DNA of 41,768 bases from Microcoleus sp. Aus8_D2 (GCF_036702665.1 NZ_JAUBUN010000017.1:1-41768), one strand, 5' to 3'; shown: positions 3,371 through 30,424, counted from the first letter of the stretch. The notes: generated by a model from the sequence alone, not told the origin. Made by a program: numbers and translations.

Positions 3371-3375
3371 CAAAC

Positions 3376-3606: not shown

Positions 3607-3615
3607 GGTAGTTAC

Positions 3616-4221
3616 CTATCGCTTTCTGTGTCCTGCAATTGGACACCTGCTACGGGTATAAACAGGTTCCCAAGAAACTTTTAAGTTTTGAGATTTGCCT
3701 ACATAAATAACTTTTGGTTCTGTTTTGCTTACCATCACAAAGAACAAACCACGAGAAGGAGGTAAAAAATGGAGTGAAGAAAGAGGCAATATCGGTAACT
3801 GTAAAATACTTTGTGGGGTGATGTCAGTTACCATGTTTATTTGAGCTTTGTCGGAATTCCCTAAGTATTCCTCCATTACAGTCGCTTTTTTAAGAGCGAT
3901 ATGTGGACTCTCATTCGGTAACTTCGCTTTTCGCTCTGTTCGCTCTATCGATTCAGGAGGAGGAAACTCACCCTCATAATGCACTAGACGTTTCCATGTT
4001 TCAGTCATGGTTACATTGCCGAAACATTTTGCATAGGAATCTATATTTAGTTTCTTAGCAAGCTGTTTGTAGAACTCGAAACTCCCAGCACCCAAGTTAC
4101 CAAAAACAAAACCTGAGTTGAAACCTAGGCTTTTACGTGCCGAACAGTATTCTTCTCGCTCTTCTAACGCGGACGTTACGATTTGCGATCGCAAATCACT
4201 TGATAACGGTAAATCTGTCAT
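3616..4221 (-). CDS. Hypothetical protein (island cargo). The C-terminal stretch GLFFVMVSKTEPKVIYVGKSQNLK is faintly GIY-YIG-like.
   Basis: 201-aa ORF with no recognisable family. The ORF 3376-3606 follows after a 9-bp gap in another frame, so this may be a frameshifted single gene. Confidence 0.4.
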   Translation of the reverse strand: MTDLPLSSDLRSQIVTSALEEREEYCSARKSLGFNSGFVFGNLGAGSFEFYKQLAKKLNIDSYAKCFGNVTMTETWKRLVHYEGEFPPPESIERTERKAKLPNESPHIALKKATVMEEYLGNSDKAQINMVTDITPQSILQLPILPLSSLHFLPPSRGLFFVMVSKTEPKVIYVGKSQNLKVSWEPVYTRSRCPIAGHRKR

Positions 4222-4676
4222 AGTTATTCTGTTCCAATCGTTGGTTGTAAACGTTTGGGGAAGTCGTGGTTAGTGTGGTTCGTCAAAACCGCATTACCGC
4301 GCATCAATCTTCCTTAGTTACTCACGATTGCAGGTTTGCAGCCGCTTGTCAACGGTATAACCGTTAAGTTCTGTAAAGTTTTGTTACGGGTAATGGTACA
4401 GAAAAAATAAAAGTTCGTTATATAACCTTTGTTTGTAGCGTAAGTCGCTAATATGGTTTATTTATTATAGCTTACTTAATTAGACTAAAAGGTACAAAAA
4501 AGTTGAATAGGAGGGTTTTTTATTGGCTATTTTTATATTTACTATTTACACCCTGTTTTAGTCCATTTTAACGCTATACTGATTTTGTAAACCTATATGG
4601 TTTTGAAATATTTTGACATATACTGAAAACAGCCAGCGATTTAAGCGCAAAGTATTCTGAACAAGGAAGTGGCAGA

Positions 4677-4916
4677 ATGATTGTGAATTACGAGAATACA
4701 CCCGTCTCTATGCCCCATTATTGGGAACACATAGTAACATCTCATTACCTGACAAAGAATAGGTACGTCCCTGCTTATAAGCTAGAAGCGCTTAAGGATG
4801 GCGATAGCATAATTGATAGATGCCGTCGGAGATGGTGGAAAATTAAATTAGACGAACACAACCAACATTTGAAACCACAAGGTGCTATTATCCGTTTTGT
4901 TTACTGTAACGGCTAA
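4677..4916 (+). CDS. Hypothetical small protein (79 aa) in the AT-rich island
   Basis: Isolated ORF in AT-rich DNA with no recognisable motif. Confidence 0.25.
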   Translation: MIVNYENTPVSMPHYWEHIVTSHYLTKNRYVPAYKLEALKDGDSIIDRCRRRWWKIKLDEHNQHLKPQGAIIRFVYCNG

Positions 4917-5575
4917 AGCACTATTAAACCGTAAATCAAAGTAGGTCAATCTCAGTTGGTCTACTTTTTTGTGGGTAAATAAAGCGGATTTAGTAGTACA
5001 GGATTACGGAACTTTATAGGTTGGTAACATCGTTGTCAACATTAAACAGTGTTATTTAAGTGATGTACATATGTAAGATTTGTAAACATTTACGAGTATA
5101 GGGGAGTACAATAGATAAGTTTTATTAATATTAAAATTAGAGTAATTGTAAATCAATGTAACGGAAATATTGCATTAGAACTAACTAACTAGATAAAAAA
5201 CATGAACAGAGAGATACAAAAATAGTGGGTAGAAAGAGGTAGTAAAGAAAAATAAATCCCCCCCAGGGTTTTGTACCTTTCAAGCCTTAAAGGAGGCAAA
5301 AATGGCTGTTTCTGTGGCGATTAAGAGCATGAGTGATTATAAATTGCAAAAAATGAAGGGAAAGGATAGCGACTCACTTCATTAATAAAACTTATCTATT
5401 TAAATATAGGGGGGTTCAGTTTTGATTAGTAGCTGTAATATTTTTATTATTTATCCCCCCATATTGGGGGGGATAAAGTTATATATTTACTGATGATATG
5501 ACCTACAGGTTCACTCAGTAAGTAGGCACAAAAAAACCTACCGGGTTAGGGTAGGTAGGTATGTACTGGGTAGGG

Positions 5576-7027
5576 TTAGACTACTACTAACTCTGTTGAC
5601 TCATTAATACCTAAGTAATGTCTTAGAATCACATCCACACTGTTGCCACAACTGCTAGCTATGCGTAACAGAGCGTTGTTATTGTGGCTATTAGCTTGCG
5701 CGGTTAGCGTGATGTAAGTGTGACGGCAATGATAGGACGCTAAATAACCACTAATTTTGCCTTCACGAGCCAATTGTGAGACTATACCGGGATAGAAATA
5801 CGTTACTTCTTCCCCTGATTTGAGAGTTTGTTTTTTTACATAATCACGCCAAACTCTCCCTAGGGAAGAAGTATCTATATACCCCCCATTGGCATTTGAA
5901 AAAATTAAACCCTCTGTTTTGTCGCCTTTAATTTCTAACAACAAAGCTTTTAAACGTTCAAAATCTTCAAAATAAAACAAGCGGCTCTCGCCCGTCTTAG
6001 TGTTTTTAACCTTGCGAGTAGAAGCACCTAGTGACTTACTAATTTTGATAACATGACGTTCAAAATTAACGTCACGCCAAGTTAGTGCATAAACTTCGCT
6101 AGGGCGACAACCCGTTAAAAACAGAAATTCGATAAACGGTGCAAACATGATAGAACCTTTGCGAGTTCTATTGCTATCAGACTCATAAAACGCTTTGATG
6201 ATGATATCACGTTCATCCTTAGTAAAGGCACGCTTATCATTCTCTAAAGCTTTCTCATCCTCTACTTCATGCCATTCTACAATCTCACCATTAACTACTT
6301 TGTCAGCATACTTTTGCTGTGTTGTGACAACAGGTACGCTAAATTTGTTAGTAGCAAAAGGATTGTTAGTAGCCGAATTAACGATTAATCCTTTTGATTG
6401 GGCATACTCAAAGGCTTGATTTAACGCTCTCAAACTCAAAGTTTTGAGTTTGGATGTTATTGAATCAAGCGCGGTTTCAATACCCTGTTTGTCATTTAAA
6501 TGAACGGTAGCTAGCGGGTTGTCAGATAGTGTCAACTGACTACCCTTGTTTTGAAAAATTTTACCGTAAATTATGTTGCCATATTTTTTGTACGTTGTGT
6601 CAAAAGTAGTTTCTTCTATGGTTGTTTTTTTCCACAATAGATATGCTTCCCACATCGCACCTACGGTTATCTCAGGTACGGTTTGAGTCGTACCCGGCAA
6701 TTGAAGTACATCAGCTAACTTAGCATATTTGCCCCCTCCTAAGCCATATTTAGCAAGGGTAGGGTCAAACAGCTTTTCCCACTCTGGATGGTCTAAATCA
6801 GCCTCCATCGCAGCAGCAATTTGGCTAGCCCGCTTCCAATCCTCTGGGGTATCAGAGTAGCCGTATTTGCCTATTCCTAAGCACTTAGGCTTACCCTTGA
6901 GTGATTTACCGTCTAGTAGCTCCCACAGGGTGCTATGGCGCTTGGGGAAGCGCAAGGCGAGTGACCCTTTGTCAGAGTAAACAGATACATCACAAGCGGA
7001 CTGTGCCTTTTGAGATTGAGCTTTCAT
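5576..7027 (-). CDS. Tyrosine recombinase / phage-type integrase
   Basis: C-terminal catalytic signatures are present: LTGCRPSEV (Arg), HCRHTYITL (H-x-R-H box) and VILRHYLGI (Tyr). A ~480-aa protein with a long N-terminal arm/core-binding region. Confidence 0.88.
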   Translation of the reverse strand: MKAQSQKAQSACDVSVYSDKGSLALRFPKRHSTLWELLDGKSLKGKPKCLGIGKYGYSDTPEDWKRASQIAAAMEADLDHPEWEKLFDPTLAKYGLGGGKYAKLADVLQLPGTTQTVPEITVGAMWEAYLLWKKTTIEETTFDTTYKKYGNIIYGKIFQNKGSQLTLSDNPLATVHLNDKQGIETALDSITSKLKTLSLRALNQAFEYAQSKGLIVNSATNNPFATNKFSVPVVTTQQKYADKVVNGEIVEWHEVEDEKALENDKRAFTKDERDIIIKAFYESDSNRTRKGSIMFAPFIEFLFLTGCRPSEVYALTWRDVNFERHVIKISKSLGASTRKVKNTKTGESRLFYFEDFERLKALLLEIKGDKTEGLIFSNANGGYIDTSSLGRVWRDYVKKQTLKSGEEVTYFYPGIVSQLAREGKISGYLASYHCRHTYITLTAQANSHNNNALLRIASSCGNSVDVILRHYLGINESTELVVV

Positions 7028-7059: not shown

Positions 7060-7160
7060 AGGTTCTGGGTTTCTAGATACTTTCTAGATAATGACTAGAA
7101 TGTGCCTGGTATTTAACCCCTTATTTAAGGGGTTAAACCATAAAATCAGTATAACATGGT
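7060..7160 (-). repeat. Repeat-family copy C. It is abbreviated, in the same orientation as copy B, and lies immediately 3' of the integrase.
   Basis: TTTCTAGATACTTTCTAG...ATGACTAGAATGT...AACCCCTTATTTAAGGGGTTAAACCATAAAA matches the B and A motifs. Confidence 0.65.
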
Positions 7161-7170
7161 TTTCGCCTGC

Positions 7171-10100
7171 TTAATCGCTAATCCAGGCGATATGAATACC
7201 CATGTGAGAGTCGGCGAGTTTGCGGGTGAAAGACGAAAGCGCATTTTCGCACGGGCACGAGTGCAAGATTAAGGCGATGTGCGGTTTTTGCAGCCGGTGT
7301 TTGAGTTGGGGGATTAATCGCTTGAATTCCGGGGCGTTGCGGATGGCGGGGATGTCTGTATCTGCGGGGAAGATTGTTTGATATAGTTGGGTACAGAGTT
7401 CTTGGGCGATCGGGCTTATATCGGTTTCGCCTTCTAACGCGCGAATGTTGAGGGGTACGGGGAAGGTTTTATCTGTGGGTTTGAGTTGTTTTAGGAGTGT
7501 GGGGATATCTGGATTTTGTGGGTGGTTGTCCGGTATTGGGGAATTGGTGGGTTGAGTGTGCCATGCTTGATAAAATTCTGGGTAAGTCTTGCTTTGGGCA
7601 CAGTCAGAGATGACGAGGCAGCACTTGTGATAAAGAGTAAAGTCGTTTTTGTAGATTTCGGAAGTTAGGCAATCTTTCAAACCAGAGACTGCGATCGCGA
7701 AGTGTTTATCTTTCATGATTTCACCTAAGCTATCTGCCGCTATACTACGGATATGTCTATCACCTGAATTGCTGATTAACTCGACTAAAGCGGCGATCGC
7801 ATCCGGGTTGTTTTTGCATATTTGCCCTAGGCTTACAGTCGCTCTCCTCCGGGTATTTTTATCCTGAAAAGTACCGATTAACTCGACTAAAGCTGAGAGC
7901 GCAACTGAGTTATCTTTTTCGATTTTTCCTAAGATATTTAGGGCATTTCTCCAGGTATTGTCATCCTCAGAAGTACCAATAAGCTCGTCGCAATTATCTA
8001 AATTTGCGAGTATCAGAGAGTTGTTTGTTACTGATTTTGACAAGCTATATGCCAATTTAATCATCGTATTGTCATCTTCAGAAGTAGCACTCAGTTCATC
8101 AAAATTTACAAGTATAACTAAGTTATTTATGTCAATTTTTCCTAAGCTATTTGCCGCTGTCATCCGGGTATTTTGTTCGCCTGAATTGCGAATTAACTTG
8201 ACTAACCCGGAGATTGCAACTGGGTTATCTTCACCTATTTCTCCTAAGCTTTTTGCCGCTTGCTTCCAAGTATCTTCATCCTGAGAACTACGGATTAACT
8301 CGACTAAAGCTTCGATCGCAACAGGGTTAGATTTGCCTATTGTTCCTAAGCTAGCTGCCGCCTCCCTCCGGGTATTTTCATCCTGAGAATTACGGATTAA
8401 CTCGACGAAAGCTTCGATCGCAACTGGATTATCTTTGCTTATTTCCCCTAATATATTTGCCGCTATCCACCGGGTTTTTTCATTACCTGAATTGCGGATT
8501 GACTCAACTAAAGCTACGATCGCCCTTTTCCGATCCGTCTCCTTCAGTATATCCCATGAACTCTCTGCCAGTGGAGCGATAAATGTTTGCCACTCCTGCT
8601 TTTCCTCATCAAAATAACCAAACCCCCACTTAATAACCTGCGACACAATCTCATCAGCAAAACTGCAATCCTTAAACTCAGCAATCCCCGCAGCCGCGAG
8701 AAAATATGCCCGATCTCCATAAAATTTACCACACCCATCCTCAAACTCAACCAACGCCTTAATAAACGCTTCCTTCTCCTCCTTCCCAACCTCCTCACGG
8801 CCCAACCACAGCAAAATAACCTCCTTCCACTGCTTCTCAAAAATCCGATATCGAGCATCAGGATGCTGCGGATTCCCAGGAAAATGATTCAAGAAAAAAT
8901 GCCAATCCTCAGCCGCCAACGCCGCAAAATATTCCTGAAAAGTCGGATGATAAAAAGCATAAATCCCTTCCGCCGTCTCCGCATCCCTCGCCACCAAATT
9001 CAGCCAACCCAAGCGGCAAGCTATCTCAAACTGCGATGCACCCATCACCCGATATCCCACACTTTCTCGTAACTGAAACCGATCCGTTTCATTTAACATC
9101 CCAGCCAGAGCCAATTTCCCCAAAGCCGCATTCAAATCCTGCTGCTGACTCCAATTCAGGCGCGGTTCCTTCCACTGATACAAAGCAGTCACAAACCGCC
9201 GATAAAGCTTAGCCTTAGTATCCGGCAAATCCCCATCCAACGACTGCCAAGTACCGCACAGCAGCGAACATCTCAGCGGATTTTTTACTAAGTCTTGAAT
9301 TCGCTCTTTCCCCGATGCTGCTAATGCTTCCCGTAGCTGTTGGGAAAGCACCCCCCCAGCCCCCCTTGCTAAGGGGGGAGTAAGAGTTTCTTCTGTATTT
9401 TGGGTTGGGATGGAGGGAGGAAGAACCCCCCCAGCCCCCCTTGCTAAGGGGGGAGTAAGAGTGTTCCCTTCTCCTGTCGCCTGCGTTGATAAACCACGAG
9501 CAAAAGTATCCCCTTCTTCTCTTGTCCCCCCCCTTAGCAAGGGGGGGTTAGGGGGGGTTCCAAACCACTTATCGATAAACATTTCCACCTGTTCGGGATA
9601 GGAAAACTCCAGAGTACGATAAGTATCAAAAGTATCCAAGGCAGAGCCGATCGCATCCCAAACATTCTGCCGACAACTTAGCACAATCCGCGCCCTTTGA
9701 ACACAGCCGCCCGTTCTAACTTGTCGCTGAATTTCCGCCAAAGGATTCCCATCACCCGCAGCCATCTCATCCGCGCCATCCAACACCAACCAAACCCGCT
9801 CAGCATTAAACTGTGCTAAAAAATCATCTTTAATATCCGCCGTCGCCTCAGCTTTCCCAACCCTCTTAATTGCCGCCAGCAACCAAGTATCAAATAAATA
9901 CGATTCTAAATCTTTCCCCTGCAAATCCGCCAAAGCAACCCAAATAACAATCGCCTCGGAAATTTCCTCCGCCACCCAATTAGCAATCTGCCGCAACAGC
10001 GTAGTTTTCCCCGCCCCCGGTTCCCCAATAATTGCTAACCGCTTCCCATTGCTCTTCGGGCTACTTCCTCCCCGCAAAACTTGCTCCAGAAACTCCTTAT

Positions 10101-10992
10101 TTTCAAAGGTTTGAGTTACTTCTTTTTCCCGGTACAAATCCGAACCTTCCTCCGCCGCCAAATCCTCCCGGCGCTGAGTCACTTTGTGCCGTTCAACCAA
10201 TCCCAGCGGCACATAAACATCATCAATTTGACGATCGCCAAAAGTTAGCTGATTGCTACTGAGCCGCTGCTGTTCTTTCTCGTCTAAAATCTGCTGACAA
10301 ATAGCCCGCCAGTCAATCGGTTGGTAAACAATGCGGCTCTTTTGCACAATCTCCTCAAGCCAAGCATACATCTCTTGGGTTGTGGTATCAATTCGCGTCA
10401 AAGTTTGCCCGGTGAATATCTGAAAAACCTTTTCATTTTCCTTGATTTCTTGAGCAAAGTATGCAGCCACCAAGGCAAACAACTCTTGCTCTAACTTCGT
10501 TTTGTAATGTGCGACATCGCAATTTTCGAGGGCAACTTCCAGCAATTTTTGCTCAACTGCTGCTACCCGATTCTGCTTTAACTCATCTGTGGCAGTCAGC
10601 AGCAATTCTATCTCATCTAAACCCTCAATCGGAATCCCAGACGGGACTGTTTCTTTATTAACCTGTTCTAAATCTAATTTGAGCTTTTCGAGCTTTCGTT
10701 TCAACCAATCAAAATCGCGCCGCCTGTCTTGCAGCGAATAGCTAAAACTCTCTCGGTTAGCGCTATTTTTCGGATCGATTTCCTGCTTGCATTCTGAGGC
10801 GATTTGCTGCTGAGCTTTCAGGAAAGATGTTTTCAGCGCTTTTTCTAAATCGTGATTGACAATTTTACCGTTTCGCGATATCTTTTTAATGCCTGTCAAA
10901 CAGAGATGTTTTGCTGCATCATTAACTTGAGTTCCTAGTATGCCTTGCCAAGCGACTGTGAAAAGCAAGCCCAAGGTAATCGGATCTGACAT
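7171..10992 (-). CDS. STAND-class NACHT NTPase with C-terminal HEAT/PBS-lyase repeats and an uncharacterised ~300-aa N-terminal domain.
   Basis: Walker A is AIIGEPGAGKTTLL. The NACHT-type Walker B is VWLVLDGADEM. The C-terminus has many tandem HEAT-like repeats (…NPVAIEALVELIRNS.DE.TRR.AA.SLG.IG…). The start is placed at the internal ATG 10992 (MSDPITLG) with GGAG 9 nt upstream. The ORF-track extension to 11130 is encoded by the tandem repeat. Confidence 0.85.
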   Translation of the reverse strand: MSDPITLGLLFTVAWQGILGTQVNDAAKHLCLTGIKKISRNGKIVNHDLEKALKTSFLKAQQQIASECKQEIDPKNSANRESFSYSLQDRRRDFDWLKRKLEKLKLDLEQVNKETVPSGIPIEGLDEIELLLTATDELKQNRVAAVEQKLLEVALENCDVAHYKTKLEQELFALVAAYFAQEIKENEKVFQIFTGQTLTRIDTTTQEMYAWLEEIVQKSRIVYQPIDWRAICQQILDEKEQQRLSSNQLTFGDRQIDDVYVPLGLVERHKVTQRREDLAAEEGSDLYREKEVTQTFENKEFLEQVLRGGSSPKSNGKRLAIIGEPGAGKTTLLRQIANWVAEEISEAIVIWVALADLQGKDLESYLFDTWLLAAIKRVGKAEATADIKDDFLAQFNAERVWLVLDGADEMAAGDGNPLAEIQRQVRTGGCVQRARIVLSCRQNVWDAIGSALDTFDTYRTLEFSYPEQVEMFIDKWFGTPPNPPLLRGGTREEGDTFARGLSTQATGEGNTLTPPLARGAGGVLPPSIPTQNTEETLTPPLARGAGGVLSQQLREALAASGKERIQDLVKNPLRCSLLCGTWQSLDGDLPDTKAKLYRRFVTALYQWKEPRLNWSQQQDLNAALGKLALAGMLNETDRFQLRESVGYRVMGASQFEIACRLGWLNLVARDAETAEGIYAFYHPTFQEYFAALAAEDWHFFLNHFPGNPQHPDARYRIFEKQWKEVILLWLGREEVGKEEKEAFIKALVEFEDGCGKFYGDRAYFLAAAGIAEFKDCSFADEIVSQVIKWGFGYFDEEKQEWQTFIAPLAESSWDILKETDRKRAIVALVESIRNSGNEKTRWIAANILGEISKDNPVAIEAFVELIRNSQDENTRREAAASLGTIGKSNPVAIEALVELIRSSQDEDTWKQAAKSLGEIGEDNPVAISGLVKLIRNSGEQNTRMTAANSLGKIDINNLVILVNFDELSATSEDDNTMIKLAYSLSKSVTNNSLILANLDNCDELIGTSEDDNTWRNALNILGKIEKDNSVALSALVELIGTFQDKNTRRRATVSLGQICKNNPDAIAALVELISNSGDRHIRSIAADSLGEIMKDKHFAIAVSGLKDCLTSEIYKNDFTLYHKCCLVISDCAQSKTYPEFYQAWHTQPTNSPIPDNHPQNPDIPTLLKQLKPTDKTFPVPLNIRALEGETDISPIAQELCTQLYQTIFPADTDIPAIRNAPEFKRLIPQLKHRLQKPHIALILHSCPCENALSSFTRKLADSHMGIHIAWISD
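9348..9560. repeat. Intragenic palindromic repeat insertions in the NACHT gene. CCCCCC(AGCCCCCC)TTGCTAAGGGGGG occurs as two direct copies (9348-9386 and 9425-9462) plus one opposite-orientation copy (CCCCCCCCTTAGCAAGGGGGGG, 9527-9548).
   Basis: Read directly. They are translated in-frame as TPPLARGAGGVL (twice) and PPLLRGG, between the NACHT and HEAT modules. Confidence 0.8.
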
Positions 10993-11031
10993 TTGACGGT
11001 TCTCCTGATGCGCTGCTCGAAGCGGGTTAGT

Positions 11032-11360
11032 TTGATTGTAGGCGATCGACTTTAGTGGCGATCGGGCGAGTTGACAGGTGCGTCGCTTTGAGATTTTCGA
11101 TGTTTGGCTAAGGATTTTCTGTGGCGACACACCCGAATACTTGATTGTAGGCGATCGACTTTATTGGCGATCGGGCGAGTTCACAGGTGCGTCGCTTTGA
11201 GATTTTTCATGTTTGGCTAAGGATTTTTTGTGGCGACACACCCGAATACTTGATTGTAGGCGATCGACTTTATTGGCGATCGGGCGAGTTGACAGGTGCG
11301 GAGCTTTGAGATTTTCGATATTTAGTTAGGGATTCTTCGCAGGCGACACACCCTACGATT
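11032..11360. repeat. Tandem direct repeat of 3 x ~109 bp, each unit containing HIP1-like GGCGATCG motifs. It lies between the HTH regulator gene and the NACHT gene.
   Basis: Units start at 11032, 11141 and 11250 and are >90% identical (TTGATTGTAGGCGATCGACTTTA(G/T)TGGCGATCGGGCGAGTT(G/C)ACAGGTGCG...). Confidence 0.85.
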
Positions 11361-17139: not shown

Positions 17140-18273
17140 TCAAGCTGTTCGATGAATTTCTGCGATCGCACTGGTGACTCGTTCTAAATCTTCTTCAGTT
17201 AAATTCGAGCCAGAAGGCAAGCAAAGACCATGTTCAAATAACTCTTCAGCAACTTCGCCTCCGATAGATTCACACTCAGCAAATACTGGCTGCAAATGCA
17301 AAGGTTTCCAAACCGGACGCGCTTCTATTTTCTCCTTCGCCAGTGCGAGGCGAACAAGTTCTCTATCCGCACCGAAAGCAGCAGGATTAATTGTCAAACA
17401 AGTCAGCCAGCGAGTAGCGCGTCCGAAATCAGCTTCCGGCATAAATTCGATTCCCGGCAAATTTCCCAAAGCTTGTTTGTAAACCTCAAAATTGTGCCGT
17501 CTCGCCTCAACTCTATCCTCCAAAACCCGCAATTGACCAATCCCAATCCCCGCTAAAACGTTGCTGAGGCGGTAGTTATAGCCGATTTCGGTGTGTTGGT
17601 AGTGAGGAGCAGGATCGCGGGCTTGCGTCGCCAAGAAACGGGCTTTTTCTACCAGTTTTTGGTCGTCAGAAACTAACATTCCGCCGCCGGAAGTGGTGAT
17701 AATTTTATTACCGTTGAATGAGAAAATCCCGATTTTGCCAAAAGTTCCCGGAGAACGGTTTTTGTAAGTAGCTCCTAGGGATTCGGCCGCATCTTCAATT
17801 AGGGGTATTTCATAGTCATTGCAAACTGCTAAAATAGGGTCAATATCGGCACTTTGACCGTAGAGGTGTACGATCGCCACAGCTTTGGGCAACTTTCCTA
17901 ATTTGGCTCGTTTGTCCAGGGCTTCTCGCAACAATTCTGGATTCATGTTCCATGTAGTGCGATCGCTATCAATGAAAACCGGTTTGGCGCCTAAATAAGT
18001 AATCGGACTCGCCGTAGCAATAAACGTCAGAGTCGAGCAAAAAACCTCATCGCCTGCACTGACACCAATTAATTGTAAAGCTAAATGTAAAGCCGCAGTG
18101 CCCGAACTCAGAGCAGCGGCGTGGCTGGAACCGACAACATCGCAGAATTCCCGCTCGAAAGCATCGACATGGGGGCCGACGGGGGCGATCCAGTTGGTGT
18201 CAAAGGCTTCTTGGACAAACTTTTGTTCTAGTTCGCCCATGTGCGGCGTTGAGAGGAGGATTTGTTTGGTCAT
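17140..18273 (-). CDS. DegT/DnrJ/EryC1/StrS-family PLP-dependent nucleotide-sugar aminotransferase (PglE/WbpE-like)
   Basis: The PLP-lysine motif FSFNGNKIITTSGGGM and the conserved N-terminal segment (GSSHAAALSSGTAALHLAL) are present. The start is placed at MTKQILLSTPHMG, 10 bp after the upstream gene. Confidence 0.88.
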   Translation of the reverse strand: MTKQILLSTPHMGELEQKFVQEAFDTNWIAPVGPHVDAFEREFCDVVGSSHAAALSSGTAALHLALQLIGVSAGDEVFCSTLTFIATASPITYLGAKPVFIDSDRTTWNMNPELLREALDKRAKLGKLPKAVAIVHLYGQSADIDPILAVCNDYEIPLIEDAAESLGATYKNRSPGTFGKIGIFSFNGNKIITTSGGGMLVSDDQKLVEKARFLATQARDPAPHYQHTEIGYNYRLSNVLAGIGIGQLRVLEDRVEARRHNFEVYKQALGNLPGIEFMPEADFGRATRWLTCLTINPAAFGADRELVRLALAKEKIEARPVWKPLHLQPVFAECESIGGEVAEELFEHGLCLPSGSNLTEEDLERVTSAIAEIHRTA

Positions 18274-18283
18274 TGGGGAGACT

Positions 18284-18922
18284 TCATTCATTACCTTTAA
18301 ACTCTTCACTTGTAAGATGACCTTCTTGGCTGATTTCTTTTTGTCCCAAGACTTGACCTACTGTCAGGAAAAGTATTTTCAAATCCAGCCACAGGTTCCA
18401 ATTATCCACATACCAAACATCGAGCCTAAATTTCTCCGGCCAATTACCATCTAGAAGTCGGCGACCGTTCACCTGGGCCCACCCGGTGATTCCGGGCATC
18501 ACATCATGGCGGCGTGCTTGTTCTGGGCTGTAGCGTTCTAGGTATCGTACTAACAAGGGACGAGGGCCAACAAAGCTCATGTCGCCTTTGAGAACATTCC
18601 ACAGTTGGGGAAGTTCGTCCAAACTGGTTTTTCGCAAGAATTGACCGATCGCAGTCAGGCGTTGTTCGTCGGGGAGCAAGTTTCCTTCGCGATCGCGATC
18701 GCTCGTCATCGTGCGAAATTTGTAGAACTTGAAGACGTGGCTATCTTTACCTGGCCTCGGTTGTGTGAACACAACGGGAGAACCCATGCGGATGTAAATG
18801 GCGATCGCCACTATTAAAACGATGGGAGAGAAAATTAGTAGGGCGATCGCGGCAACTAATCTATCTAATACCCACTTAACTAATCTGCTGAATTTGGTGA
18901 TTGGCGATCGGTGATTATTCAT
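18284..18922 (-). CDS. Small monotopic phosphoglycosyl transferase (bacterial sugar transferase, PglC/WbaP-C-terminal type). Likely the priming enzyme.
   Basis: One N-terminal TM helix is followed by the conserved block GSPVVFTQPRPGKDSHVFKFYKFRTM...DELPQLWNVLKGDMSFVGPRP. Confidence 0.88.
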   Translation of the reverse strand: MNNHRSPITKFSRLVKWVLDRLVAAIALLIFSPIVLIVAIAIYIRMGSPVVFTQPRPGKDSHVFKFYKFRTMTSDRDREGNLLPDEQRLTAIGQFLRKTSLDELPQLWNVLKGDMSFVGPRPLLVRYLERYSPEQARRHDVMPGITGWAQVNGRRLLDGNWPEKFRLDVWYVDNWNLWLDLKILFLTVGQVLGQKEISQEGHLTSEEFKGNE

Positions 18923-18939: not shown

Positions 18940-19701
18940 TCATTTTTTACAGACAAAGTAAAGCATTCCTTGTAGGCGTTCATTCGCTAATGTTTCAATT
19001 GATTCTGGCATTCTTCCTTCTTGTTTGATCTGATAACTAGAACCCACAGCAACTACATGAAAACCAACTTTTTTTATAATCTGTTCAGCCTCTGCAACTT
19101 GATACCAATAAGGATAAGGGCCTCGATCCAGAAGGCATAACCAGTTTGGTTTTCCACCAAGCTTCAGCCAAGGAATATATTGAAGAGAACGATTTGAGCC
19201 GCGAAGCTTCCGTATCAGGCTGAGATAAGATAAATATGACTTGTAGATGGGACTTCTAACTCTCGTTTCAAAGCTGAGGAATGAGAATAATGCAATCCCC
19301 CCCATTTTGAGGATACGATAAGCCTCTTCCATCGCCTTTAATCTGCTTGAATCATTTTCGATCAAACAAATAATTTGTTGAAGATAAATTATCTGATCGA
19401 AACTAGCATCTTCGTAGTTTAAGCTAGTTGCATCCTGAACTTCAAAAGAAATACTCTGCGTCGCATCTCTTTTTTTTGCCTGCTCAATAAATTCTGGCAC
19501 GTAATCATAACCGGCAAGAGATGTAAAACCCATCTGTTTCATTTCTAATAAAATTCTTCCTCCTGCTGTTCCAGCTTCGAGTATTTTTCCTGTTCGAGCT
19601 AAATAAGTTTCTATTAGATACTTTTCTTCCTCAATCAATTGTTCTTTGTCTGCCCAACTCTCAAATTCTACTGTGCTGTAAACTTGCTTGTTGTCCATCA
19701 T
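18940..19701 (-). CDS. Class I SAM-dependent methyltransferase (paralog of 22328-23086)
   Basis: Motif-I-like ILEAGTAGGRILLEM followed by an acidic motif II. About 60% identical to the downstream paralog. Confidence 0.6.
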   Translation of the reverse strand: MMDNKQVYSTVEFESWADKEQLIEEEKYLIETYLARTGKILEAGTAGGRILLEMKQMGFTSLAGYDYVPEFIEQAKKRDATQSISFEVQDATSLNYEDASFDQIIYLQQIICLIENDSSRLKAMEEAYRILKMGGIALFSFLSFETRVRSPIYKSYLSYLSLIRKLRGSNRSLQYIPWLKLGGKPNWLCLLDRGPYPYWYQVAEAEQIIKKVGFHVVAVGSSYQIKQEGRMPESIETLANERLQGMLYFVCKK

Positions 19702-19714
19702 ACAATTCTCCTAA

Positions 19715-20779
19715 TCAGTTAGAGCGATATGCAGGGAAAAAATTGGTATTCAGTAGATGCTCCACCTCGATCTTCAGATATTTTGCACGTAGGTTAACTA
19801 AATGAAGATATTTTTCTTCATCTGTAATTAAGCGTCGGGTGAAAAAAGTGTGTCTTTGCTTAGAGAAACCTGCTTTGAAATGGTAGAGACTATCTTGCGA
19901 ACCTCCTAAACCACCGCCTAGATGGAAAACTTGATTACCGCGTTCCTTAGCCCAGAATCGAACATAATCAAACATTAGTTTAGTGGGTGCTTGTTTCAAA
20001 AAGCTTGACTTCGTACCACCCAGATGATACTGAACGATGCCGCAGCACTCAGTAAACAAACCACCACAGGTAATTTCTCCATTCAATTCTACCATACATA
20101 AATGCAATTTATCTCCTAATACATCGATGAGTTTTACCAGATAATTAGTTCCGAAATAATATAACTTTGCAGCCCCAACCCGAGCCATTGTTTCCTCATA
20201 AATCGCGTTGAAATCATTAATATATTCCTGAATAGGAACCATTTTAGCCGAAAAACCTTCGCGGACGCATCTATTTATTTTATTGCGATGTTCAGAGCGA
20301 GTTTGACTCCATATTTCACTTCGTTCGAGTGTTAAATCTACAGAAACTGTTTCTCCATTGAGTGTAAACAAGTCATTGTTTATCGAAGTATTAACATCCT
20401 TGTTGAGAATAGGATGCAGCCGTAAAAAAGCCGAACAAATATTGCGATCGCGCCAGGCCTGTGTTAAATTTTCGATTGCCAAGATAAAAAAATCAGGAGT
20501 GCTAGCTGCGGCTTCATTTAACAAAAATCCCGGATAGCCATAGGGCGATATAACATCAAAAACTTCTACTGTCTCTGCAAATAAATTATTGCACTTTCGC
20601 AATAAATAAGGCAAAAAGAATATTTTGTCATCATCAGCAATCAAAATAGCTTCTGCGGTTGCTTCGGTTCTTTTTGCTTCTAAATCCACATAGCCAGGTA
20701 AATGATAAAAATCATGTCTGAGATTATCCAGAGTTTCTAGCCACAAAGGACTGCTTAAATCAATAAATTGGATTTTCAT
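19715..20779 (-). CDS. FemAB/CelD-like GNAT-fold (Acetyltransf_6-type) acyl- or aminoacyl-transferase
   Basis: The C-terminal block KLMFDYVRFWAKERGNQVFHLGGGLGG...LYHFKAGF is characteristic of the FemAB/CelD-like family. 354 aa. Confidence 0.55.
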   Translation of the reverse strand: MKIQFIDLSSPLWLETLDNLRHDFYHLPGYVDLEAKRTEATAEAILIADDDKIFFLPYLLRKCNNLFAETVEVFDVISPYGYPGFLLNEAAASTPDFFILAIENLTQAWRDRNICSAFLRLHPILNKDVNTSINNDLFTLNGETVSVDLTLERSEIWSQTRSEHRNKINRCVREGFSAKMVPIQEYINDFNAIYEETMARVGAAKLYYFGTNYLVKLIDVLGDKLHLCMVELNGEITCGGLFTECCGIVQYHLGGTKSSFLKQAPTKLMFDYVRFWAKERGNQVFHLGGGLGGSQDSLYHFKAGFSKQRHTFFTRRLITDEEKYLHLVNLRAKYLKIEVEHLLNTNFFPAYRSN

Positions 20780-20878
20780 GGCTTGATAATTTTAAGTTGA
20801 TTATTCGCGAAGATTTACTGTGCATATAACCTCATCTGCTGACTTAGCACTTCAGCAGATGAGTAGGTTCAGCACCTT

Positions 20879-21826
20879 CTAGCCGTACAAAGACTGCACC
20901 CATTCCCATTCTTGCTTCAACCCTTCCCTCAAAGAAACCTGTGCCTGATATCCCAAGATTTTCTGAGCTTTCGATACGTCAGCGCTAGTATCTCGCGCAT
21001 CTCCTTTGCTCGATTCTAGGTAATTGATGCGAATCGGGCGATCGACAATGCTTTCCATAGTCTGAATAACTTCCGCCAAAGCAACTCGACTTCCCCCTCC
21101 AATATTAAATATTTCCCCGACAGCTTCCGGCACTTTAGCGGCAGCTAAATTAGCGGCAACGCAATCGCTGATAAATGTAAAATCTCGCGTTTGCTGTCCG
21201 TCTCCGTAAATTGAAATCGCTTCGCCGCGCAAAATTGACTTAAAAAATATGTGAAATGCCATATCGGGACGCTGGCGAGGCCCGTAAACAGTGAAATACC
21301 GCAGCATGGTTGCGGGAACGCCAAAATTGTGATGATAAAGCGAAGCCAAACGTTCAGCGGCTAATTTGGTAATCCCGTAGGGAGAAACTGGTTGAGGGCA
21401 GGCAGTTTCGGAAGTAGGAAAAGTTTCAGCATTGCCGTACACCGACGAAGACGAAGCCAATACAAACTTTTTCAGTTGCGGTGCATCTTTTGCGGCTTCT
21501 AGGAGTACCTGAGTTGCATTGATATTGCGTTCCGTATAGCTGCGGAAACCGTCTCCCCAACTAGCACGGACTCCTGCTTGGGCTGCTTGGTGGTAAATGA
21601 CTTCTGCATTTGCTAATAGCGGTTTCCAATCCAAAGATAAGATATTGCCCTCAATTAGTTGAAAATTCGGATTTTTTTCAAAATGAGCGAGATTTTTTCT
21701 CTTCAATTCGGGATTGTAGTAATCGTTGACTTCATCAACACCGATTACTTGTTCACCTTGGTTTAAAAGAGTTTCGACTAAGTTAGAGCCGATAAAACCT
21801 GCCGCGCCTGTAACAATATTACTCAT
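20879..21826 (-). CDS. NAD-dependent epimerase/dehydratase, most similar to UDP-glucuronate 4-epimerase-type SDRs
   Basis: The N-terminus is MSNIVTGAAGFIGSNLVETLL...VIGVDEVNDYYNPELKRKNL. YGITK (YxxxK) is present. The start is set at the internal ATG 21826. The ORF-track N-terminal extension is a glycosyltransferase remnant. Confidence 0.75.
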   Translation of the reverse strand: MSNIVTGAAGFIGSNLVETLLNQGEQVIGVDEVNDYYNPELKRKNLAHFEKNPNFQLIEGNILSLDWKPLLANAEVIYHQAAQAGVRASWGDGFRSYTERNINATQVLLEAAKDAPQLKKFVLASSSSVYGNAETFPTSETACPQPVSPYGITKLAAERLASLYHHNFGVPATMLRYFTVYGPRQRPDMAFHIFFKSILRGEAISIYGDGQQTRDFTFISDCVAANLAAAKVPEAVGEIFNIGGGSRVALAEVIQTMESIVDRPIRINYLESSKGDARDTSADVSKAQKILGYQAQVSLREGLKQEWEWVQSLYG

Positions 21827-21828
21827 GG

Positions 21829-21862
21829 GTTGATTGTTGATTGTTGATTGTTGATTGTTGAC
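21829..21862. repeat. Heptamer tandem repeat (GATTGTT)5, i.e. (AACAATC)5 on the coding strand. It is immediately 5' of the epimerase start codon.
   Basis: Read directly; it occupies positions -3 to -36 relative to ATG 21826. Confidence 0.9.
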
Positions 21863-21865
21863 TTC

Positions 21866-22010
21866 AGCATACAAAGCCTCGTATTGCTTGAGGATATGTG
21901 GTAGGTCATAATTAACCATATTTTCTCGTCCGCGCTTGCCCATATGTTGAGCTTCCTCTGGATGGTCTAAAATCTCTGTTGTTACTACTCCTTCTTTTGC
22001 TACACTATGA
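21866..22010 (-). pseudogene. Remnant of a GT4 glycosyltransferase C-terminus (…EILDHPEEAQHMGKRGRENMVNYDLPHILKQYEALY). It matches the tail of the intact GT 25779-26921 (…ILDHPEDALAMGKRGRSRMATHDLQNIIKLHETLY).
   Basis: Minus-strand translation compared by eye with the GT 25779-26921 C-terminus. Confidence 0.55.
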
Positions 22011-22327
22011 ATATCACTTTATCAATAGTTCGGACAGTTTTTATTTCGTAGTCTGAAACCATTATTTTCCATTGACGGATAGGGGCGCTCGCGCACGGAT
22101 TACCCTACAAAACACTATATACAGCATATCCCAGGTTTATGAAGTACAGTAGCAACTATTGGCAAACCCGCTACATAGGTAGATCCAAAAGATTGTGCAT
22201 CACATATACATCGAATATGTTGTATATAGCGTATCTGCGTAATTCCTGATACTTTAACTCAAGTTAATACCACCTTAAACTATTTTTTGCCTATGTTTGG
22301 TGTGCGAAAGTCTTAATTAACTAAAAT

Positions 22328-23086
22328 TTACTTTTTGCACACAAAGTAAAGCATCCCTGCAATCGGTTCTTTGACTAATGTTTCAATTGACTGGTGCATT
22401 TTGCCTTGTTTAATCTGAAAATCAGAACCAATAGCAACCACTTCAAAATTGACTTCTCTTAAAAGCTGGTAAACCTCTTCAACCTTGTACCAATAGACAT
22501 AAGGTTCCCGATCGACAAGCGCCGACAAGTTTACTTTCCCACCATGCTTAAGCCAAGGCAGATACTGAATTGTCCGATTCGATCCCCGCAAATTCCTAAA
22601 CATACCCAAATACATCAAGAACAACGAATACATAACACTGCTCTTTCTGGCATCAAAACTTAGAAACGAAAATAAAGCCGTTCCCTCATTTTTGAGAATT
22701 CGATAAGCCTCCTTCAGGGCTTTTAACCTGGCTTCGGCATCATCAATAGAAGAAATTATTTGCTGTAAATAAATGATCTGATCGAAATCATTATCTTTGT
22801 AATTTAATCTAGTTGCATCCTCCACCTCAAAATAAATACTGCCGCTCGAATCTTTCTGTCTTGCCTGCTCAATGAATTCTGGCACGTAGTCATAACCGTA
22901 AAGAGATGTAAAACCAATTTTTTTCATCTCTAACAAAATTCTTCCTCCTGCGGTTCCAGCTTCTAAAGTTTTTGCTCTTTTATCTAAATAGTTTTCGAGC
23001 AAAAATTTTTCCTGAGTGAGTAAACGTTTTTTATAAGCCCACTCCTCAAATGCTACAGTGCTGTAAACTTCCTTGTTGTCACTCAT
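22328..23086 (-). CDS. Class I SAM-dependent methyltransferase (paralog of 18940-19701)
   Basis: Same motifs and length as 18940-19701 (LEAGTAGGRILLEMKKIGFTSLYGYDYVPEFIEQA). Confidence 0.6.
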   Translation of the reverse strand: MSDNKEVYSTVAFEEWAYKKRLLTQEKFLLENYLDKRAKTLEAGTAGGRILLEMKKIGFTSLYGYDYVPEFIEQARQKDSSGSIYFEVEDATRLNYKDNDFDQIIYLQQIISSIDDAEARLKALKEAYRILKNEGTALFSFLSFDARKSSVMYSLFLMYLGMFRNLRGSNRTIQYLPWLKHGGKVNLSALVDREPYVYWYKVEEVYQLLREVNFEVVAIGSDFQIKQGKMHQSIETLVKEPIAGMLYFVCKK

Positions 23087-23096
23087 AAACTTACCA

Positions 23097-24179
23097 TCAA
23101 TAAAGAGAACGATAGACCGGAAAAAAATCCGTAACTAGCAGTTTATCTGCTTCTGTGTTCAAAAATCTTGCACGCAGTTCAATCAGTTCGAGATATTTAG
23201 TTCGCTCTGTAATTATCCGCAGCGTCAAAAAAGTATGTCTTTGCTTGGAAAAACCTGCCTTGAAATGGTAGAGACTGTCCTGGAAACCTCCTAAACCTCC
23301 CCCTAGATGAAAAAGTTGATTGCCGCGTTCTTTAGCCCAGAATCGAATATAATCAAACATCAGTTTGCTAGGTGCTTGTTTAAAAAACTCGCTTCTGGTT
23401 CCTCCCAAGTGATATTGAATTATTCCACAACACTCGGTAAATATCCCTGAACAAGTAACTTTATCCTCTAATTATACTATACACAAGTGAACTTTTTCAC
23501 CTAGTTTAGAGAAATGTGAAAAATATTCATCATCAAAATAGTACGATCGCCCAGCCTCTACCCGATCCATTGTTTCATGGTAAATCGAAATAAACTCGCT
23601 GATATAGTCCTGAAATGGAACGATTTTTGCTGTCATCTCAGAGCGCTTTAACTTATTAATACTCGTGCGGTGTTCCGATCTAGTTTGACTCCATATTTCC
23701 GCTTCGGAGAGTTTCAAATTCACAGATACAGTTTCTCCATTTAATTTGCAAATATCGGGCGATAAAATTTCCTTAAATCCGCTGTTAAGTATCGGATGCA
23801 GCCGAAAAAATGCCGAACAGACTCCCTTGGCACGCAATACAGAGATTAGCTGATTCATTGCCAACTCTAAAAAATCTTTTGTACTAGCTGCCTTCTCACT
23901 CAACAGAATTCCTGGATAACCATAAGGGGAGACAACATCAAAAACATCTTGTGTTGCCAAGCTTTGGTCAAATATATCATAGCACGGACGCAAAAAATAA
24001 GGTATAAAAAAGATTTTGTCATCTTCAGCTATCACAATAGCTTCTGCTAGGGCGTTGTTCCGAATCGACTCCAAATATAGATATTCAGGCAAATGATAGA
24101 TATCGTGGCGAATTTTTTGCAGAGTCTCTAACCACAAAGAGTCTGATAAACCAATTACTTGAATTTGCATTTTATGCAC
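23097..24179 (-). pseudogene. FemAB/CelD-like paralog disrupted by a single in-frame TAA (minus strand, 23474-23472) at the position of a Glu codon in the intact copy
   Basis: The two ORF fragments (23472-24179 and 23097-23408) align collinearly with 19715-20779. Minus-strand translation across the gap reads VHLCIV*LEDKVTCSGIFTECCGIIQYHLGGT. The intact copy reads LHLCMVELNGEITCGGLFTECCGIVQYHLGGT. Confidence 0.7.
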
Positions 24180-24287
24180 TCCTAAATAATAAGTAATTTC
24201 ATGTTCGGTTGAATCGCTATTGAATCATTGGTCATTTCTAATATCTAAGTTTCTTAATTTAATAAAAGACTGCATAATTTACACCGA

Positions 24288-24410
24288 TAGAGCTTCAGTA
24301 TAAAGAGCTTCATATACTTTCAGGATCTGTGGCAATCCATACTCCGTCATTCCTTCTCGTCCGCGCTTTGCCATGATGGAAGCATCTTCAGGACGATACA
24401 TATGTAAATG
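24288..24410 (-). pseudogene. Second remnant of a GT4 C-terminus (…RPEDASIMAKRGREGMTEYGLPQILKVYEALYTEALSV*)
   Basis: Minus-strand translation matches the C-terminal 40 aa of GT 25779-26921. Confidence 0.55.
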
Positions 24411-24431
24411 GATGTAAATCGAGATCGCCAC

Positions 24432-24527
24432 TATAGCCTTTCTCAGGTAGGTGAGGTACAGACAAATGCTCGAAAATCCTGAAATTCATAGAATCTGGTA
24501 CACCTCATGTTGGTGAGAACCGCTATA
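24432..24527. mobile_element. MITE-like element (~96 bp) with terminal inverted repeats TATAGCCTTTCTCA…TGAGAACCGCTATA. There is a second copy at 30319-30424.
   Basis: The two copies share termini and the internal CATAGAATCTGG(C/T)A(T/C)ACCTCA segment. Each copy is internally palindromic. Confidence 0.6.
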
Positions 24528-24791
24528 TATCTAAGTATTGCAGTAAAAAAAACAAATGGCGATACCCACAAACAATTACCATTATAGAGGCAAATGAGTA
24601 AATCATTGCACAAGCTAAGTTGATTTATGTCAAAAATAGTTATTTTTTGTATCAAATTATTTACGCAAGTCAAAAATATTAAGAATTATTAAATTTTGGT
24701 AATGAGTAACGAATTCTCGCTCCGACAATTTCACGGACGTGTTAAGATTAGGTGCAAACAATCAAGAGTATAAGTTTACAAAAAAACTACC

Positions 24792-25628
24792 ATGAAATTA
24801 AAAAAAACATTACCTCCTAATCGGAGTTTTGAACAAATTCAAAATCACTATTTGGTGGAGAAAGCCATTGCCGACAGAATCAAGGTATCTAGTCTTGAAG
24901 ACCGAAAACTTATCTATGCCACGATGTATGATGAATTATTTGGTAAAGTACCAGATCACCCAAGATTGACTAGAAGAGACAATGAACAACTTACTCTAAT
25001 AGCAAATAAGAACAAATTGGCTACCCTCAGTGGGCTTATAGATCAATCAACTGTCTTCGCAGAATTTGGTCCTGGGGACTGCCGATTTGCTATGGAAGTT
25101 GCCAAATATGTTAACTGTGCATATGGCATAGATATTTCAGATCAGCGCAACCCAAACCACAATGCGCCTGATAATTTCAAATTAATTATATATGATGGTT
25201 ACTCTCTTGAAGGGATCGAAGAAAATTCCATTGACATCTTGTTTAGCGATCAAATAATCGAACACTTTCATCCCGAAGAAACTCAGCTTCATTTTCAATT
25301 AGCATATCGTATTCTCAAAAAAGGTGGCAAGTACATATTTATAACACCACACGCATTCAGAGGTCCGCATGATGTATCTGCCTATTTTTCCGATGAGCCA
25401 GAATGCTTTCATTTGAAAGAGTGGACTTATGCCGAACTACATCAAATCCTGAGCCAGTTAGGGTATTCAAAACTTGATTCATATTGGTGCGCAAAAAGCA
25501 TAAAATTCAGAATGCCTAATTTCTATTTTGAAGTCTGTGAAAAAGTGCTAGGTTTATTCCCAAGGCAATACATAAGAGTTGTTGCAAAATATTTAATACC
25601 CAACATTTTTTGTGCCACTATCAAATAA
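24792..25628 (+). CDS. Putative class I SAM-dependent methyltransferase (278 aa)
   Basis: Motif-I-like FAEFGPGDCRFAMEVAKYV and motif-II-like DILFSDQIIEHF. It is the only plus-strand gene inside the cluster. Confidence 0.5.
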   Translation: MKLKKTLPPNRSFEQIQNHYLVEKAIADRIKVSSLEDRKLIYATMYDELFGKVPDHPRLTRRDNEQLTLIANKNKLATLSGLIDQSTVFAEFGPGDCRFAMEVAKYVNCAYGIDISDQRNPNHNAPDNFKLIIYDGYSLEGIEENSIDILFSDQIIEHFHPEETQLHFQLAYRILKKGGKYIFITPHAFRGPHDVSAYFSDEPECFHLKEWTYAELHQILSQLGYSKLDSYWCAKSIKFRMPNFYFEVCEKVLGLFPRQYIRVVAKYLIPNIFCATIK

Positions 25629-30318: not shown

Positions 30319-30424
30319 ATAAAGAACATATAGCGGTTCTCAGATAGATGAGGTATATATCAAAGGTCGAAAACCTTGATGTACATAGAATCTGGCATAC
30401 CTCACCTTTGTGAGAAAGGCTATA
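30319..30424. mobile_element. Second copy of the MITE-like element (TATAGCGGTTCTCA…TGAGAAAGGCTATA), in inverted orientation relative to 24432-24527
   Basis: See 24432-24527. Located in the 213-bp gap between the GT and the Wzy-like gene. Confidence 0.6.

Follow-up and report, generated by a model that had tools for sequence, protein, structure and literature searches.

Probable stacking of two allelic FemAB-like/methyltransferase cassettes in a hypervariable polysaccharide locus of Microcoleus sp. Aus8_D2

Mosaic O-antigen and capsule loci, such as those of Enterobacteriaceae, Streptococcus pneumoniae, Klebsiella and Acinetobacter, evolve by replacement of allelic cassettes, with gene remnants left at the junctions. 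In homology-facilitated illegitimate recombination, foreign DNA is integrated additively and is anchored on one side. Here, we analyzed a Wzx/Wzy-type polysaccharide cluster on a 41,768-nt stretch of DNA from Microcoleus sp. Aus8_D2 (GCF_036702665.1, NZ_JAUBUN010000017.1:1-41768; the whole stretch is referred to as the window). Two modules lie head to tail in this cluster, each with a FemAB-like transferase gene and a methyltransferase gene (Fem1 and MT1 in module 1, Fem2 and MT2 in module 2), and a fragment of a glycosyltransferase (GT) tail marks the 5' boundary of both. The best explanation, with a probability of about 0.75, is that recombination stacked two alleles of one cassette in a polysaccharide locus that is hypervariable, and that one of the transferases was then recently inactivated.

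The locus resembles the O-antigen and capsule loci in having a variable central block between conserved flanks, with parts that reassort and truncated remnants at the crossovers. Its allele divergence is likewise far above that of the backbone (synonymous divergence, dS, > 1 versus 0.15-0.18). It differs from them in its cyanobacterial host, in the Fem plus methyltransferase (MT) content of the cassette, in the two alleles being kept in tandem and not replaced, and in the small palindromic elements that stand beside the joins instead of insertion sequence (IS) or H-repeat elements. With segmental tandem duplication and pseudogenisation, it shares head-to-tail units, a boundary fragment of the upstream gene and one inactivated copy; however, the copies are not sisters, near-identical or closer orthologs of each are found in single-copy loci, and the junction between the modules (J1) is young whereas the copies are old. 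As in homology-facilitated illegitimate recombination, foreign DNA lies beside resident DNA and one junction lacks homology and contains filler, although here the end product alone is seen, and no left-side anchor was found because the sampled loci include no close relative of the left part.

Related loci (L001-L037) were collected for comparison: nine by a scan of one genome per species (eight Microcoleus) and 28 more by protein searches with contig look-ups and a metagenome scan. They follow a recurring backbone of a GT4-family glycosyltransferase, an optional epimerase, Fem, an optional extra gene, MT, a small sugar-phosphate transferase (Bac_transf), optional extras and a DegT-type aminotransferase. 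The doubled GT tail-Fem-MT arrangement was present in none of these loci (9 + 28). In the order of transcription on the minus strand, the window contains GT4, MTx (a further methyltransferase gene, on the plus strand), remnant 2, Fem2, MT2, a 307-nt spacer, a 46-nt filler, remnant 1, heptamer repeats, the epimerase, Fem1, MT1, Bac_transf and DegT (Table 1).

According to the original prediction, made from the sequence of the window, the two modules are collinear products of an ancient tandem duplication. Their collinear homology was confirmed. In pairwise alignments, MT1 and MT2 were 63.6% identical over their full length (E 4e-121) and Fem1 and Fem2 61-62% identical, and the copies share order and orientation, forming direct repeats in register with a spacing of 3382-3391 nt. 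The gene order also bore out the absence of an epimerase from module 2. Divergence of the copies is indeed old, with Nei-Gojobori dS estimates of 1.26 for Fem1/Fem2 and 1.01 for MT1/MT2, far above the 0.15-0.18 obtained for the flanking epimerase of the window against that of L001 or L015. The duplication itself was not supported by comparison with relatives: each copy is nearer to loci with a single module than to the other copy, and the synteny comparison found each module type singly, in a shared slot.

Loci L015 and L001 have one module each, in the order GT'-epimerase-Fem-MT-Bac_transf-DegT, where GT' is their type of glycosyltransferase. Fem1 is 91.7% identical to the Fem protein of L015 and 86% to that of L001, and MT1 shares 92% of its amino acids with the MT of L001. 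At the DNA level, the window matches L001 at 95% from 21974 to 20850 and at 92% from 20779 to 16293. For module 2, the counterpart is L010, a 4.1-kb metagenome contig that recurs almost unchanged in three further samples. In order, it contains an epimerase 3' end (97.8% nt identity to that of the window), a Fem2-type gene that is intact and encodes 357 aa, an MT with 98.8% identity to MT2, the spacer, and Bac_transf and DegT genes (91% nt). Against L010-L013, MT2 showed 98.8% amino acid and 99-100% nucleotide identity, with a ratio of nonsynonymous to synonymous divergence (dN/dS) of 0.1; Fem2 was 80-83% identical to L010 and to the L002-L009 set. Sister status of the module copies as local duplicates was rejected on these identities. 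In close relatives, Fem2-MT2 and Fem1-MT1 take up one and the same position, bordered by the same genes, which marks them as alternative alleles of one site.

Neighbour-joining trees of the Fem and MT proteins gave the same grouping. Fem1 clustered with L015, L001 and L014, whereas the partners of Fem2 were L010 and the L002-L009 group; the second Fem copy that co-occurs in L002, L004 and L009 falls in a third clade. MT1 clustered with L001, and MT2 with L010-L013, L014 and L017. In L014 and L017, a Fem1-clade Fem is paired with an MT2-clade MT, a case of the reassortment and mosaicism that are widespread among these loci. Module 2 is itself a mosaic relative to L010: the 5' two-thirds of Fem2 match at 74-89%, the Fem2 3' end and MT2 at 96-100%, and the spacer at 86-99%. 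The flanks of the site are conserved, with Bac_transf 85-93% identical to its counterparts in L015, L016, L010 and L001. The resident intact GT is 80% identical to the GT of L015, 74.5% to that of L009 and 65% to that of L001.

The junction J1 was delimited by comparison of the window with L010 and L001. The L010-type spacer that follows MT2 stops matching at 22021, and position 21974 is exactly where the GT tails of L001, L003 and L008 start to match. Between these sharp breakpoints lie 46 nt homologous to neither parent (21975-22020). The filler connects the spacer 3' of MT2 with a GT tail, no shared repeat lies at the join, and a 27-nt probe across J1 had no match in JGI metagenomes.

The resemblance of both remnants to the tail of the intact GT, proposed earlier, was confirmed formally. 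When the 45-residue tail of the resident GT was used as a tblastn query against the whole window, remnant 1 was recovered at 21973-21863 (59% over 37 aa, E 6e-12) and remnant 2 at 24392-24288 (51% over 35 aa, E 9e-9), compared with an E value of 0.097 for the best unrelated match in the window. Remnant 1 had been assigned to 21866-22010; the fragment is real, but its start at 22010 is not, as the homology begins at 21974 and the rest is unrelated filler. Likewise, a fragment of remnant 2 does exist within the proposed 24288-24410, but the homology spans approximately 24279-24397, including a stop codon. The module boundaries had furthermore been placed in the 3' end of the intact GT gene. The GT4 family of the resident GT was the right one, but remnant 1 is not a copy of that gene, a source ruled out by an identity of just 59%.

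The closest matches of remnant 1 are the GT tail of L015 (44/46 aa, E 2e-27) and the GT' tail of L001 (96.5% nt). The adjacent epimerase shows 95.6% identity to L001 and, overall, 95-96% nt identity to L001, L015 and L017. Judged by this homology, remnant 1 is what remains of the tail of a GT of the L001/L015 type, which in its native setting stands before the epimerase. Because its identity to L001 matches that of the adjacent epimerase, the join at J1 is young. Remnant 1 is non-coding yet nearly identical to a functional gene of another species and must therefore postdate the divergence of the Fem and MT copies; J1 is far younger than the paralogs (dS 1.0-1.3), and a junction of the same age as the copies was rejected. 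The GT of L015 (7781-8953) is also a mosaic: across its whole length, its identity to the resident GT is 80%, yet its last ~46 residues are of the remnant 1 type (96%). This implies that recombination has had breakpoints within the GT gene, close to the 3' end.

The TCAACAA heptamers occupy the last codons of the GT gene, just before the epimerase start (L001 ~5934-5956, L015 ~8923-8947). In the alignment, three copies were counted in L001, L015 and L017 and four in L002, L025 and the window. With every unit, the GT frame is displaced with respect to the ATGA in which stop and start overlap, and the extra unit of the window, compared with L001, L015 and L017, brings the tail frame into that of the epimerase. 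The epimerase open reading frame (ORF) reaches 21943 only through in-frame fusion with the GT-tail fragment. NCBI annotates the 315-aa form, the 354-aa form was absent from the collection, and the longer ORF is an artefact of the tail fusion.

Remnant 2 has an open frame with its own stop and no heptamers. It is 51-67% identical at the amino acid level to GT tails (E 9e-9 to 1e-11) and 69.6% at the nucleotide level to L003, and resembles the tails of L003, L008, L009 and the resident GT, none of which is followed by an epimerase. The homology of module 2 starts ~50 nt upstream of Fem2, with a blastn limit at 24218-24222 in seven loci. Just upstream of remnant 2 stands a 25-mer (24410-24434) with a GATCGC core, which gives the same match in L001, L015 and L016; it is a possible junction relic of a sugar-transferase gene, although, given this core, it may also have arisen by chance or as a repeat. 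A weak tblastn signal (E 0.3-0.9) had suggested a decayed sugar-transferase 5' fragment at 24431-24562. This was rejected for most of the stretch, since 24432-24527 is a dispersed palindrome that abuts the second junction, J2. The 96-nt palindrome has terminal inverted repeats TATAGCnnTTCTC...GAGAAnnGCTATA and a predicted hairpin of -26 to -32 kcal/mol, in which the differences between the copies are compensatory; a search gave 2 matches versus 0 expected. The other copy in the window (30329-30424) is within the same cluster, in a gap between genes, and one in L010 (2760-2857) lies in the MT2-to-transferase spacer, ~70 nt past the end of the window/L010 match.

Tandem duplication in situ of a GT tail-epimerase-Fem-MT unit, with divergence to ~60%, differential loss elsewhere and loss of the epimerase from module 2, would account for the collinear order, for the GT-tail fragments at both 5' boundaries and for J1, where sequence lying 3' of an MT runs into a GT tail, the form expected of a duplication junction. 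Several Fem paralogs per locus are also common (L002, L004, L009, L029-L032). Nevertheless, the present results largely refute this history, which we regard as improbable. Non-coding remnant 1, so close to the functional GT' tail of L001, is too young for copies with dS of 1.0-1.3, and none of some 30 other loci has a doubled module with GT tails. The single-module L010, to which MT2 is nearly identical, has Fem2-MT2 downstream of an epimerase, an order that deletion from the window arrangement cannot yield. Finally, remnant 2 is of a GT-tail type unlinked to an epimerase, and because it ends like GT tails with no epimerase after them, the absence of this gene from module 2 is probably not a loss.

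Fem2 had been described as a pseudogene in a decayed module. An inactivating lesion is present, but decay of the module was overstated: MT2 is intact, as are MT1 and Fem1, and Fem2 has one lesion. A frameshift was discarded, the gene keeping one reading frame throughout with a single in-frame TAA at 23472-23474 (codon 233). The stop arose where GAA became TAA, at a position that is Glu in every one of the 16 homologs compared. In the Fem1 model, residue 233 falls in the second GNAT domain, most of which the 232-residue Fem2 product would lack. The dN/dS of Fem2 against orthologs was 0.21-0.26, equal to that among intact orthologs (0.19-0.37); therefore, Fem2 was constrained until very recently, and relaxed selection was rejected.

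The same constraint, together with the intact MT2, might suggest that stacking was itself selected, the modules acting in series with two Fem enzymes that add successive amino acids (cf. FemX/FemA/FemB), each with its own MT, and the Fem2 stop being very recent or strain-specific. Two adjacent Fem genes also occur in L029-L032, L002, L004 and L009. However, the second Fem elsewhere belongs to the third clade and never forms a Fem1 + Fem2 pair, Fem1-MT1 and Fem2-MT2 each stand alone in close relatives, and Fem2 is truncated in all four known carriers. We regard serial action as improbable.

These carriers are four Microcoleus assemblies in NCBI with consecutive accessions (MEG4320528-535 and their equivalents) for Bac_transf, MT1, Fem1, the epimerase, MT2, the Fem2 N-terminal fragment (annotated as a 232-aa "hypothetical protein"), MTx and GT. 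No NCBI record of a Fem2 with the Glu restored was found. The identical proteins in four assemblies rule out a sequencing error and argue against misassembly. A chimeric contig co-assembled from the alleles of two strains, conceivable as close relatives with the alternative allele occur in nature (L010-L013) and cyanobacterial cultures are often non-axenic or mixed, is very improbable given the same proteins in the same order in separate assemblies, a unique filler at J1 with no shared repeat for an assembler switch, and the absence of the GT' body that a chimera of two complete alleles would keep.

From the homology limits, allele relationships, junction sequences, single stop and four assemblies, we infer the following mechanism and order of events for the stacking of two alleles. 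The region is the hypervariable decoration part of the polysaccharide locus, with a cassette site for Fem + MT between a conserved GT4 (epimerase optional) and the initiating sugar-phosphate transferase and aminotransferase genes. Across Microcoleus, the cassette comes in several long-diverged alleles, which recombination reassorts. The resident allele was probably L001/L015-type GT'-epimerase-Fem1-MT1. Its GT' body and everything upstream would have been replaced by foreign DNA ending in Fem2-MT2 and its native 3' spacer, with an illegitimate right-hand join, including the filler, inside the last ~37 codons of GT', which would have left remnant 1. An analogous event, separate or possibly older, may have produced remnant 2 before Fem2. 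The two alleles would thereby have come to stand head to tail instead of being exchanged, and one nonsense mutation would then have knocked out Fem2. Either homology-facilitated illegitimate recombination or unequal exchange between the genome copies of a polyploid cell with two alleles would give such a product.

Several points weigh against this account. The recombination mechanism is read from end products only, and the exact left part (GT-MTx-remnant 2-Fem2) was in no donor found. With 74-89% identity in the 5' two-thirds of Fem2, the sampled relative L010 is not a direct donor. A search of 5.8 billion proteins with the remnant 2 peptide returned no close relative and no donor GT. The four carrier assemblies may be near-clonal, giving little population depth. 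An old duplication at the root of these clades may have been the ultimate source of the Fem and MT allele families. The biochemical role is a prediction from gene context.

A bolder version of the stacking account, which we consider unlikely, is that the scars left by GT tails and sugar-transferase heads, along with the 96-nt palindromes beside the joins, mark a dedicated accretion hotspot that repeatedly stacks Fem/MT cassettes (with ATP-grasp, PhyH and other genes). If so, the locus would be a cassette-shuffling system that diversifies an aminoacylated, methylated surface sugar, possibly under phage or grazer pressure, and stacked Fem enzymes could make longer peptide side chains on the sugar.

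Other scars and accessory genes were observed in the related loci. In L001 (Microcoleus sp. ARI1-B5), fragments of Fem and of the Fem/MT boundary directly follow the epimerase (7118-7300), 92% and 79% identical to window positions 20119-20080 and 19790-19639, respectively; after them come ATP-grasp (PylC-like) and HAD genes, a divergent Bac_transf-like piece and then the intact Fem-MT pair. In L007 (946-1270), L008 (9497-9845) and L028 (1895-2219), a frameshifted 5' fragment of Bac_transf (residues ~1-116, 60-69% aa) immediately precedes a Fem2-type gene, and a full Bac_transf stands after the MT. These fragments are a second kind of recurrent junction scar at the locus. A PhyH-family dioxygenase gene adjoins the third-clade Fem gene in L002 (13084-13974) and L004 (12958-13848). 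Together, the PhyH genes and the ATP-grasp/HAD genes of L001 suggest varied sugar side-chain chemistry across Microcoleus species. A population-genomics paper on Microcoleus makes no mention of polysaccharide or glycosyltransferase loci (PMC10923798).

Gene roles were assigned by Pfam profile matches. Fem1 scored 28.8 bits against PF02388 (FemAB; gathering threshold 24) and 26.6 bits against PF13480 (threshold 22); the two fragments of Fem2, scanned separately against Pfam, had no match. MT1 and MT2 scored 54.8 and 51.5 bits (Methyltransf_11/25, cutoff 21.2). Against the NCBIfam FemX and PEP-CTERM FemAB equivalogs, the score was 33 bits compared with cutoffs of 260-500. The profile scores thus place Fem1 in FemAB at the Pfam family level only, outside the FemX and PEP-CTERM FemAB equivalog subfamilies. 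A PDB sequence search with Fem1 gave no match, and the fold search alone was informative. The AlphaFold model of Fem1 (pLDDT 90.9) had FemX, Sbb17, FemA and MprF domains as top PDB matches (TM 0.60-0.73, E 1e-16 to 1e-13), the best being FemX of Weissella viridescens (TM 0.69-0.73) and other aminoacyl-tRNA-dependent transferases. Among the entries matched were 7z6a and 1ne9 (TM 0.67-0.73, E 1e-16), 9wqw-9wqy, 6snr and 1lrz. The matches include Staphylococcus aureus FemX and FemA as well as Sbb17 and Sba18, aminoacyl-tRNA-dependent peptide synthases whose structures were solved with streptothrisamine, a substrate.

Fem1 therefore has the same tandem-GNAT fold as the Fem-family aminoacyl-tRNA-dependent transferases (W. 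viridescens FemX, S. aureus FemX/FemA, and Sbb17/Sba18 of streptothricin-type pathways), although its sequence identity to them is only 10-17%, and, unlike the peptidoglycan Fem enzymes, it is encoded in the context of a lipid-linked polysaccharide pathway. This context includes a PglF-like dehydratase, a DegT aminotransferase and a Bac_transf of PglC size. From these neighbours, Fem1 is likely to N-aminoacylate a 4-amino-4,6-dideoxy-HexNAc, in a reaction proposed to depend on tRNA, and the MT would then methylate the product; the dehydratase and the aminotransferase would supply the 4-amino sugar. FemX-like proteins are widespread in cyanobacterial polysaccharide clusters, with 2,872 homologs at E <= 1e-30.

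Table 1. Coordinates of the features of the stacked modules and their flanks in the window.
Feature	Position	Strand	Basis
MT1, class I SAM-dependent methyltransferase, 253 aa, module 1	18940-19701	-	Pfam Methyltransf_11/25/31
Fem1, FemAB-like tandem-GNAT transferase, 354 aa, module 1	19715-20779	-	Pfam FemAB, Acetyltransf_6
NAD-dependent sugar epimerase/dehydratase, 315 aa from MSNIVTG	20879-21826	-	Pfam Epimerase, E 8e-55
Heptamer repeat TCAACAA, 4.7 copies, GT-tail/epimerase junction	21829-21861	-	TRF, 100% matches
Remnant 1, last ~37 codons of L001/L015-type GT4	21862-21974	-	DNA homology
46-nt filler at junction J1	21975-22020	-	Comparison of window, L010 and L001
Native 3' flank of module 2	22021-22327	-	86-99% identity with L010 2386-2692, continuous
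MT2, class I SAM-dependent methyltransferase, 252 aa, intact, module 2	22328-23086	-	Pfam
Fem2, FemAB-like gene with one nonsense codon	23097-24170	-	Single frame
Leader of Fem2-type genes, ~50 nt, conserved	24171-24222	-	Alignment with L002, L003, L008 and L010
Remnant 2, diverged GT4 tail with own stop, without heptamers	24279-24397	-	tblastn
25-mer like sugar-transferase 5' region	24410-24434	-	Repeat search, 23/25 vs 18790-18814
Palindromic dispersed element, 96 nt, abuts junction J2	24432-24527	.	Second copy 30329-30424
MTx, methyltransferase, 278 aa, between module 2 and intact GT	24792-25628	+	Pfam Methyltransf_11
Resident intact GT4 glycosyltransferase, 380 aa	25779-26921	-	Pfam Glycos_transf_1, Glyco_transf_4
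Bac_transf, small polyprenyl-phosphate sugar-phosphate transferase, conserved 3' flank of cassette site	18284-18922	-	Pfam, E 1.6e-66
DegT-type aminotransferase	17140-18309	-	

MTx is the sole opposite-strand gene within the cluster and splits the co-directional array. Its DNA has a GC content of ~0.35, none of the 37 related loci has a homolog, and the protein cluster of its exact sequence has 2 members only. It looks like a recent acquisition. The rest of the cluster also encodes a MurJ-type flippase, several GT4 proteins, an asparagine-synthase-type amidotransferase, a UDP-glucose dehydrogenase and a UDP-glucuronate-decarboxylase-like protein. No Rfam family was found anywhere in the window, and a promoter/terminator scan yielded fewer sites than in shuffled sequences and nothing usable on operon structure.

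Two further observations concern the wider window. A 935-aa PglF/WbpM-type membrane-anchored UDP-sugar 4,6-dehydratase (CoA_binding_3 + Polysacc_synt_2; 37923-40730, minus strand) is fused at its C-terminus to an EAL c-di-GMP phosphodiesterase domain, and the same fusion occurs in L002, L004 and L015. This suggests a direct tie of c-di-GMP signalling to the first step of the polysaccharide pathway. At the other end, a low-GC stretch (0.34-0.39; 3000-7027 and 7171-11130) contains a phage-integrase-family gene (5576-7027) and, beside it, a gene for a 1319-aa NACHT-HEAT STAND NTPase with NACHT C-terminal NCC-H and NCAB1 domains. The stretch may be a mobile or defence-related island adjoining the polysaccharide cluster.

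The structure seen at this locus is real, the history first proposed for it was mistaken, and the locus is a further example of a well-known mode of locus evolution. Where a locus exchanges alleles horizontally, a similarity of ~60% between neighbouring modules dates no local duplication. Serotype-like cassette dynamics of the kind found in pathogen O-antigen and capsule loci, including junction scars, reassortment and recent gene inactivation, are documented here in a globally important soil cyanobacterium. The locus also points to the widespread cyanobacterial FemX-like enzymes of polysaccharide clusters, which are predicted to attach amino acids, probably to an amino sugar, an amino-acid decoration chemistry that is poorly explored for cyanobacterial surface glycans.

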